35,222 nt of DNA from a virus. Lineage: Duplodnaviria > Heunggongvirae > Uroviricota > Caudoviricetes. This document shows, one piece after another, positions 3,001-6,000 of the stretch (within the stretch, counting starts at the first letter, position 1; every line of letters starts with the position of its first letter). Location: the IMG/VR virus record IMGVR_UViG_2541047123_000042, positions 1 to 35,222 of that record; one strand, written 5' to 3'. A program made the position numbers.

Positions 3001-6000
3001 TACATCGTGGTCATTCCAGTACGCCCACGGGCAGATTTGTCCTGCTCGCTCGTAAGCTCCACGTAAAATTACGTTGTCGAAGGTGGCCCCGTTACCCCAG
3101 ACTTTTAAATATTTCGTATTGTCTGCGTGCCGGTTAATGAAATGGTTTAGTTCTGAGAGAGCATCGCTGATCGACAAAGTATCATCAATACTTCCAGCGA
3201 TACCAGCGCGACTTTAAATGCGGTAAGTACGTTTTTAACCACATCGATTTTGAATACTATTTCATCACATACAAACGATTTATCGTCTACTACCGTTTCA
3301 ATTCCGGTAATCGTGTTTTGTAGCCATTTGGTTAATTCAGCCATTTTTCATTACCGCCCTTTCGGGCGGTCTCCTGATGTTCTGAGGGTGCAGGAATCCC
3401 TCCGGTTAAGGATTAAATTTTATTTACAGAACTGAATTTAATTATTCAGATATACGTATCTGTAACCTTACGAACCTACTCACTGGATGCCTATTTCATA
3501 AAAATAATCCAGTGGGTTTTATCGTTTTTTCCTGTTCGTTGACCGATAACAGGTTTTCTGTCGGTCAGTACCAATATCTGGCGAACAGGTATTTGCGTTT
3601 CATTCCATTTAAAAATCAGAACGCCGGATGGACGCAACACACGAAAGGCTTCTTTAAATCCCTGCCGCAAATCATCACGCTAGGTATCTTTATTCAGCCG
3701 TCCATATTTCTTTCCCATCCAGGCGTTATCACCAACACGCTCAAGATGCGGAGGGTCGAATATAACCATCGAAAAAGATGCGTCTGCAAATGGTAGTGCA
3801 CGAAAATCAGCTATCAGATCAGGACTGATAATCAGGCGTCGTCCATCACACAATGTGTGCTCTTCCTTTCTGATATCGCTAAATATCGCCCGGTCGTCAT
3901 TCTTATCGAACCAGAACATGCGACTGCCACAGCACATGTCGAGGATTGCTGCATGTCCAGTCACTGGCTGCCTCCTTTGCGAAGCCGTTCCGCCCATTCT
4001 TCAAGGGATTTCTCTGCATATTCACCGGACAGGCCATCAATCGGATGCGATTCATTAGCTAACTCTTCTTTTGCTGACAGAATCATGCGTGTAACGTCGA
4101 AAACTTCAGCCAAAGGCTTATTGATAAATCCGTGATTGAAAGCAGCAGCAAGACGGCTTGCGGTATAGTTAATACCCTCGTTGCGAGCCTCAGCACGTAC
4201 TTCATCGAATTTACGCACCAGATACTCAGCATTTGTTTCATTCACTTTCAGATCTCGCGGTACACATTTCCCGCGAAGAAACCCTTCCATTTCGAAAACA
4301 TTCATGCGCATTTGTGTAACTCCGATAACTCGTTAAAACGTTCCATAAACATCCCGTAGGCATGGCTAGGTGCCAGTGGAATCACGTTGAACATCTCTGT
4401 TGCCGGGATGCCTTCCAGTACAGGCCAGAAAGAGCCATCATCAAGCCCGAGATCGCGGCGTTCGGTTGCCAGCATGATAAGATCGGCATATTTCACGGGC
4501 GTACTCATAACTGGGGGTAACCCGTATTTCTCACGGATTACGGCGTCAATTTTTTCTTCCATCCGTTTATAGTCAGGAAGAAGGCGTTTCAGTGGAGCGG
4601 GGATGTCCTGGCAATACGCTTCTGTTGCATCATGCATTAATGCTTCAAAAGCAAATTCCTGCGGTACCAGCTGGCTGCAAAGAACCGCATGTTGGGCGAC
4701 GCTGTAGAAGTGCGAAAGATGACCGGCAAAGCGACAGATATTTGAAAGGGAAACCGCGATATCGTTAATATCGATGTCGTCTTTATTTATCCTGTCATAA
4801 TAAAAATGCTTCCCGGAAAAAGTTTTAATAAATGACATTTTGTTCTCCACGTATATGCGCTGCACCGCGCTGAATTCTGGTAAAAAGAATCCCTCACCAT
4901 CCGGCGATTATTGAGTAAATTACGTTTCCATAAATGCCCCCTCAGGGGCATTTGCAGTAATGAAATCAGGCGGTGAAAGTACCAATAAAGGTTTCTACTT
5001 TGCTGTCCTTGAATTTCTCAACAAGCAGATCACGAAATTCGTTAGCCATTTCTTCCTGCACCGCCTCCAGCTGAATAATGCGCAGAACCAGTACCGGACG
5101 ATCGCCAGTGATAATGCTGAGGCGTAATTTAAACGGACGTTCTTTCAGACCTTCAAACGGAATGCATTTAAATTCAAATGCCACTGGCATAATGTCTTTG
5201 GTCTTCGCTTCGACAGACTCCATCAGGGAGCGTTTGCCGCTGAAGTCATTATCTTCAAAATCAGCGGTCTGGTTTGCTTCAATCGTGATTTTACGGACCG
5301 CCGCAGCCGCTTTTGTTGCCTGAATGGTGTCACCATTAGCATCAAAGCCCACAAGGTAGTCGGCCCAGTCTTCAATCCATTCTGGTTGCCGCCAATCGTA
5401 TCGCGTTTATTGACCCGGCAAACGGGAATGAAACGCCGATGTTTGTGGCGCAGGGCAACCAGATATTCATGAACGACGTGTTCCTGAAGCGCCTGACGGC
5501 CCCCACCATTACCAGTGGTGGAAATCCACCGGCATTTTCCCTGACACCGGATGGAAAGCTGACTGCTAAAAATGCGGATATCAGTGGTAACGTGAATGCG
5601 AACTCCGGGACGCTCAACAACGTCACGATTAACGAGAACTGTCGGGTTCTGGGAAAACTGTCCGCGAACCAGATTGAAGGCGATCTCGTTAAAACAGTGG
5701 GCAAAGCTTTCCCCCGGGACTCCCGTGCACCGGAACGGTGGCCATCAGGGACCATTACCGTCAGGGTTTATGACGATCAGCCGTTTGACCGGCAGATTGT
5801 TATTCCGGCGGTGGCATTCAGCGGCGCTAAACATGAGAAAGAGCATACTGATATTTACTCCTCATGCCGTCTGATAGTGCGGAAAAACGGTGCTGAAATT
5901 TATAACCGTACCGCGCTGGATAATACGCTGATTTACAGTGGCGTTATTGATATGCCTGCCGGTCACGGTCACATGACGCTGGAGTTTTCGGTGTCAGCAT

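Follow-up and report, generated by a model that had tools for sequence, protein, structure and literature searches.

Compact phage-borne and orphan methyltransferases of about 157 residues, among them those of Listeria A118, Streptococcus T12 and Gordonia Bosnia, show a DxCCG motif I followed by a DPPH motif. The same arrangement is found in a gene on the minus strand of the stretch analysed here, a Caudoviricetes sequence of 35,222 nucleotides (IMG/VR virus record IMGVR_UViG_2541047123_000042, positions 1 to 35,222; the window in what follows). In this gene, unlike in the members of PHROG 954 and of the PADLOC groups MTase_II and oMTase, the reading frame is interrupted by a nonsense codon, a TAG at 3680..3682. 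The lesion is real and the gene is an ordinary pseudogene: it is already known, as the public annotation carries the pseudogene label, and both the family and the mutational mechanism are also of known kinds.

The family is unusually small (about 157 residues, with no recognition domain) and unusually well conserved across phyla, with 65% identity to the protein of Gordonia phage Bosnia and about 50% to those of A118 and T12. Closer relatives, of about 89% nucleotide identity, are the Qin-type copies and the copy of phage PhiR42_1. Hundreds of E. coli genomes carry the Qin-type methyltransferase, and many of these copies are also pseudogenes in this species. They differ from the window gene in lying in another prophage module, downstream of O and DUF977/LygF, and in retaining TGG at the codon for Trp95, the position of the amber codon in the window. 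Their lesions are an AAA to TAA change near codon 119 and a 1-nucleotide insertion (13E0767, extract 2537-2981; PhiR42_1, extract 3264-3620). In E. coli 2015C-3101 (extract 1346-3071) a TGG allele of the methyltransferase is split by IS1203, a third independent inactivation.

The change found in the window likewise resembles a described case. The second C of CCAGG sites is a classical hot spot of spontaneous amber mutation, where GC>AT transitions are explained by the deamination of 5-methylcytosine to thymine (PMC12606429). In lacI (Coulondre, Miller et al. 1978, via PMC12606429) such second-C transitions convert CCAGG into CTAGG and thereby create a TAG, as in the window. The affected lacI codon is CAG (Gln), read on the CCAGG strand, whereas the gene described here lies on the opposite strand and the codon concerned is TGG (Trp); the deamination mechanism is in this case suggested by the sequence context.

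The interrupted gene and its intact allele

Translation of the minus strand from 4000 to 3440 showed one frame with an internal stop, which passes through VTGHAAILDMCCGS and VIFDPPHLERVGDNAWMGKKYGRLNKDT up to that stop and continues with RDDLRQGFKEAFRVLRPSGVLIFKWNETQ as far as THWIIFMK and the terminal stop. The residues bordering the lesion are GRLNKDT on one side and RDDLRQGF on the other, the frame closing with IIFMK; on the plus strand the internal stop reads as 'cta', at 3680-3682. In the list of open reading frames (ORFs) the gene appears as two halves in the same frame, 3680..3997 and 3491..3670; the portion 3683..3997 spans 315 nucleotides and the downstream ORF 3491..3670 begins 9 nucleotides further along. 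The features of the gene are as follows.

3491..3964, minus strand: methyltransferase pseudogene, 157 codons plus the natural stop (translation; Prokaryotic Genome Annotation Pipeline, PGAP; 473 of 474 nucleotides shared with WP_000145671.1)
3971-3977, minus strand: Shine-Dalgarno sequence AAGGAGG, 6 nucleotides before the GTG start (sequence)
3962-3964, minus strand: GTG start, the start used by PGAP and all homologues
3683..3964, minus strand: N-terminal part, still translatable, 94 codons, with predicted strands β1-β4, motif I and motif IV
3923-3946, minus strand: motif I, ILDMCCGS, before the stop (translation)
3746-3757, minus strand: motif IV, DPPH, before the stop (translation)
3680..3682, minus strand: premature amber codon, codon 95, ancestral TGG (Trp), changed base 3681
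3680..3684, no strand assigned: former Dcm site, CTAGG on the plus strand here and CCAGG in all intact alleles
3494..3679, minus strand: C-terminal part, now untranslated, 62 codons, with predicted helix 95-109 and strands β5-β7 of the Rossmann-like sheet
3491-3493, minus strand: natural stop TAG, after Lys157 (sequence)

The first-pass annotation had placed the gene at 3494-3997. The natural stop lies at 3491-3493. The beginning of the gene has to be moved, because the GTG at 3964-3962 is preceded by the AAGGAGG Shine-Dalgarno sequence, shares the sequence GTGA with the TGA (3961-3963) that ends the upstream ORF 3961..4311, and is the codon used by PGAP and by the homologues; it is most likely the true start, rather than the ATG at 3997.

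Alignment of the window with the intact allele WP_000145671.1, annotated as a 'class I SAM-dependent methyltransferase' (SAM, S-adenosylmethionine) of 157 residues, revealed a sole difference over 474 nucleotides. Base 3681 is changed from C to T on the plus strand, that is from G to A in the sense of the gene, and TGG (Trp95) becomes TAG. The intact allele was found in O111:H- 110512, O157 493/89, LSU61 and NE 1092-2, where it sits on the dusA side of the same prophage, which is more complete in these strains. The ancestral codon could be read from other alleles too: TGG stands at codon 95 in the allele of strain elppa4 (94% identity) and in those of O111, O121, O145 and O104. An in-frame stop is thus present where the frame of the syntenic orthologue is uninterrupted. 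The earlier reading of the lesion as a point nonsense mutation and not a frameshift, with both halves in one frame around 3680..3682, agrees with the minus-strand translation and with this single G>A change against an otherwise identical allele. Methyltransferase-like sequence had been claimed before the stop as well as after it; the first half does hold motif I and DPPH, and in the second the segment 'FRVLRPSGVLIF' (RVLxPxG) matches the C-terminal end of Pfam Methyltransf_11. The homologues do not end naturally at this position; they read through it with an invariant Trp.

RefSeq/PGAP labels the identical 474 nucleotides of strain TR01 as 'SAM-dependent methyltransferase, pseudogene, internal stop'. 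The TAG at 3491-3493 was considered as a second lesion and rejected, the intact O111 and O157 alleles having the same stop. The elppa4 allele carries GAG instead of TAG at this point and is five codons longer (KEATSE), a difference that is normal allelic variation as judged from the sequences.

A perfect 7-bp GC-rich hairpin, ACCGCCC-TTTC-GGGCGGT, lies at 3353-3370, between the pseudogene and the minus-strand ORF 3147..3344. It is followed by a T-run on neither strand and was not flagged in a terminator scan.

A Dcm site as the probable origin of the amber codon

Base 3681 is the inner C of the CCAGG site, the position methylated by Dcm. The ancestral gene contains just two Dcm sites, which overlap the Trp codons W82 and W95, and the corresponding change would yield TAG at both. 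Altogether 50 single substitutions could create a nonsense codon in the gene; because a Dcm-methylated C is the site of only 2 of these 50, the observed one included, spontaneous deamination of a 5-methylcytosine made by Dcm is the most likely cause of the lesion. The locus would then be a natural example of a Dcm-site amber hot spot ruining, ironically, a methyltransferase gene.

Residues lost with the C-terminal part

The family comprises more than 7,400 homologues, with 2,008 representatives of clusters at 50% identity, and copies were found by tblastn in 256 phage records from Proteobacteria, Firmicutes, Actinobacteria and Bacteroidetes (45-65% identity across phyla). When 64 diverse representatives with 40-61% identity to the query were aligned, ten columns only were invariant (D9, D30, P48, P71, P72, W95, E105, R108, K119 and W120). 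Trp95 is present in all 64 of these sequences and in all of 34 close homologues.

A model built with AlphaFold2 on the 64-sequence alignment reached a predicted local distance difference test (pLDDT) score of 94.7; an earlier one, on a shallow alignment of 34 sequences with at least 74% identity, gave 54.6 and was unusable. Residue 95 opens a long helix (95-109) in the better model, followed by strands 110-121, 138-144 and 150-156 (β5-β7). The 63 lost residues hold five of the ten invariants (W95, E105, R108, K119 and W120), and the sequence removed is conserved and, by the model, structurally required. Because helix 95-109, three core strands and five of the ten invariant residues are gone, the 94-residue product is predicted to be unable to form the seven-stranded methyltransferase fold and would be inactive. 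The modeled protein consists of a pared-down Rossmann-like fold, poor in helices in the N-terminal half, and has no extra domain. A sub-group of enterobacterial homologues (P0010, P0079 and others; 248-255 residues) carries an extension of about 90 residues after the methyltransferase core, at the C-terminus.

Decay of the surrounding prophage

From position 1 to about 7250 the window is identical to a region present in E. coli O157:H7 strains such as TR01 (NZ_CP033605.1, at about 5.18 Mb), where a relic of a lambdoid prophage adjoins a dusA fragment. The prophages of O111:H- 110512, 493/89, LSU61 and NE 1092-2 share with the window the dusA-fragment locus and the neighbouring genes (PrtN-like, 3'-5' exonuclease, yfdR and yfdQ), and unlike the window they lack both a deletion of 1464 bp and a truncation that joins yfdQ to J. 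The two junctions left in the window are the following.

3186..3196 (about 3191), no strand assigned: junction of the 1464-bp deletion (BLAST of the intact prophages against the window)
5370..5390 (about 5384), no strand assigned: truncated yfdQ (DUF2303) joined to a tail-tip (J) fragment (BLAST, annotation)

With O111, 493/89 and LSU61 as the reference, the first deletion has cost the relic DUF551, small ORFs and part of the 3'-5' exonuclease gene, which is left truncated. The second accounts for the absence of the upstream part of the early operon, where the O111 copy has yfdP and the repressor-type regulator genes. A scan of 3100-5600 for a sigma-70-like promoter on the strand of the gene found none, which is weak evidence; transcription of the operon was probably lost, to judge from the sequence. 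The relic was also considered as 'Sp17', an assignment that was rejected, Sp17 carrying ECs3485-3488 and lying at a different locus.

Distribution in E. coli and age of the lesion

Exact matches to a 71-nucleotide probe centred on the TAG were counted in complete E. coli genomes. The probe is identical in 202 of them, every genome that was inspected or named being O157:H7. The same probe with TGG (CCAGG) is exact in 164 genomes, which include O111, O121, O145, O104, O157 493/89, LSU61 and NE 1092-2. Each of the two junctions, at about 3191 and at about 5384, is likewise found in exactly 202 genomes, and the simplest reading is that the TAG and both junctions occur in one set of strains. The nonsense codon appears in these alignments as one of several decay lesions fixed in the clone.

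In PMC7175801, strain 493-89 is described as a sorbitol fermenter of type O157:NM, and LSU-61 is presumed to be an intermediate from the step-by-step emergence of O157:H7. Because 493/89 and LSU61 retain TGG at the same locus, the mutation is placed by these sequences within the O157 lineage, on the route to the typical clone. The suggestion of a recent inactivation is in keeping with this, and 'fairly recent' describes it well. The TAG together with the two deletions provides a clean marker that divides typical O157:H7 from the ancestral and intermediate strains 493/89 and LSU61. Some O157:H7 strains with the TAG pseudogene hold in addition an intact paralogue of 94% identity, WP_000172332.1 (F6321, at about 2.94 Mb). 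In F6321 (extract 2434-2919) this paralogue lies in another lambdoid prophage, with ead/Ea22-like genes as its neighbours on either side.

The proposed dead gene and the alternatives to it

The account that we favour, and consider highly probable as a whole, is that of a dead gene, an ancestral phage methyltransferase killed by an amber mutation at a Dcm site within a decaying prophage. The ancestor would have been a phage-borne class I SAM-dependent methyltransferase of 157 residues, its gene forming part of the early-left operon in a lambdoid prophage beside the dusA fragment. On the way to typical O157:H7 a C>T change at the inner cytosine of the Dcm site would have turned the TGG of the invariant Trp95 into the amber codon TAG, the deamination of 5-methylcytosine having escaped Vsr repair. 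Translation would then end after 94 residues, with helix 95-109 and β5-β7 missing. The same relic has moreover lost 1464 bp internally, together with the regulatory region and all else that preceded yfdQ.

Several points weigh against this account. Any G:C>A:T transition looks alike, and the support for deamination is in this respect circumstantial; the Dcm activity of the ancestor strain is presumed. The loss of enzyme activity is deduced from the model and that of operon transcription from the sequence, and the identity of the three sets of 202 genomes is presumed from their equal counts. Finally, UAG followed by C is a relatively weak terminator, at which trace read-through may take place.

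Among the alternatives, the one that fares best, and is nonetheless unlikely, is that the loss was selected, either the inactivation of the methyltransferase or the 94-residue fragment with its SAM motif being advantageous to typical O157:H7. The benefit could have come from a changed epigenetic state or from the removal of a toxic or promiscuous methylase. The apparent fixation of the allele in the typical clone (202 genomes) is compatible with such an advantage and is equally expected from hitch-hiking or drift. The family has been inactivated repeatedly in E. coli, by TAA and frameshift in the Qin-type copies and by IS1203 in 2015C-3101; however, the neighbouring genes are deleted or truncated in an equal number of genomes, a general pattern of prophage decay, and the intact paralogue WP_000172332.1 of some O157:H7 strains indicates that the activity is tolerated.

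A conditional gene is a still weaker candidate, which we regard as very improbable. Here the full-length enzyme would be made only by amber read-through, through a suppressor tRNA or a leaky UAG-C, with low or heterogeneous expression. The frame after the TAG is still open and identical to that of the intact allele, and the next base is C, a weak termination context in E. coli. An intact downstream frame is nevertheless what is expected one mutation away from the ancestor, too little time having elapsed for it to decay. The stop itself is not conserved among diverged homologues, the position being Trp (TGG) in all 64 diverse relatives and in all alleles from outside the clone. A search of the 35-kb window with ARAGORN found no tRNA genes, suppressor tRNA genes included; the operon has lost its upstream regulatory region in this relic, and the negative promoter scan points, weakly, in the same direction. 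Furthermore, the enzyme would probably be impaired in any case with Gln, Tyr or another residue in place of the invariant Trp. The idea that the gene is expressed only under amber suppression, raised at first next to that of inactivation, is thus not supported: the window has no tRNA, the TAG belongs to the allele of one clone and the upstream regulatory genes are lost. Of a similarly low order of probability is a related form of it, in which a leaky amber codon, or a suppressor encoded elsewhere in the genome, would yield a small and variable amount of full-length protein, leaving typical O157:H7 with an ultra-compact orphan methyltransferase whose expression is stochastic.

A sequencing or assembly error at a true TGG is a general possibility only, in a window that does hold an unusual junction further right, and it can practically be dismissed, since the identical 71-nucleotide stretch with TAG is present in 202 complete genomes sequenced independently by many laboratories on many platforms and PGAP flags the internal stop in those genomes.

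Nature of the intact enzyme

The dead-gene account leaves the activity of the ancestral protein to be considered. The repaired window protein matches PHROG 954 ('DNA methyltransferase') with an E-value of 1.7e-86 over residues 2-157. With P0001, the 95%-identical representative of its cluster, as query, the PADLOC profiles MTase_II (PDLC03288) and oMTase (PDLC03730) are matched over the full length with E-values of 1.2e-73 and 2.2e-49, respectively; the PHROG and PADLOC names are annotations and not assays. Pfam gives only the generic Methyltransf_11 and Methyltransf_25, and in NCBIfam nothing scored above threshold. With a profile match above the curated threshold and a class I fold, the protein is a class I (Rossmann-like) SAM-dependent methyltransferase. 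The DPPH motif occupies residues 70-73, directly after strand 64-69 (β4), the site of (D/N/S)PP(Y/F/W/H) in exocyclic-amino methyltransferases. It is strongly conserved, with D in 63 of the 64 representatives, both P in 64 of 64 and H in 63 of 64.

Pfam N6_N4_Mtase (PF01555) and the other DNA-methylase families of Pfam gave no match for this protein; PF01555 matches 11 of the 64 relatives, with a best E-value of 0.0012, below threshold. Among solved structures, sequence and fold searches returned generic class I methyltransferases only and no specific relative of the DNA-methylase kind. The solved amino-methyltransferases with (D/N)PP(Y/F/H), namely Trm11 (6zxw), M.TaqI (1aqi), TTHA0409 (2zie) and PrmC/HemK (2b3t), have the class I fold and, as here, place (D/N)PPx right after β4; their matches to the window protein, by sequence or by fold, are weak. 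Because of the phage replication and early-region context, the REBASE-derived profile names and the DPPH motif, DNA is the most probable substrate. The earlier name 'DNA methyltransferase' accordingly stands as far as a class I methyltransferase is concerned, and its first word is a probable one, suggested by the PHROG and PADLOC names and by DPPH. Literature searches found neither an experimentally characterised member of the family nor a description of this pseudogene, and the substrate of the family is a more interesting side issue than the pseudogene itself. E. coli K-12 YfdM, the 'putative methyltransferase' of CPS-53, had been suggested as a relative by the yfdP/Q/R neighbours and was rejected (BLASTP E-value of 8.9).

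Junction and cargo elsewhere in the window

The window is collinear with the dusA-side locus only to about 7250. From about 7300 to 35222 it matches TR01 at about 1.72 Mb with 99.8-100% identity, a locus that contains a tail fibre gene, nleA, nleH1-2, nleF, ISEc8, nleG and espM1, beyond which lies a second lambdoid prophage. The right part of the window therefore corresponds to the right end of the nleA-carrying prophage and its neighbours, which in TR01 lie about 3.5 Mb from the dusA locus, in direct orientation. The switch (about 7000-7500) falls inside the tail-fibre gene at about 6828-8132. A comparison with 5,426 complete E. coli genomes recovered this junction in none of them; over 6000-9500 the best match is 98.7% identical. 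The junction reflects either a rare event, by recombination or structural variation, or a chimeric assembly, and the methyltransferase finding is unaffected by it.

A 'soxR' at 28191-28298 is an artefact of transferring the annotation of the dusA locus, and the stretch belongs to the second lambdoid prophage. Between about 8516 and 22314 (window coordinates, carried over from the TR01 annotation) type III effectors are densely packed: a frameshifted DUF1076/NleG-like gene, nleA, nleH1-2, nleF, nleG, espM1 and a fragment of the NleG family. The cluster is interleaved with fragments of IS256, ISEc8, IS630 and IS3 and with a degraded integrase.

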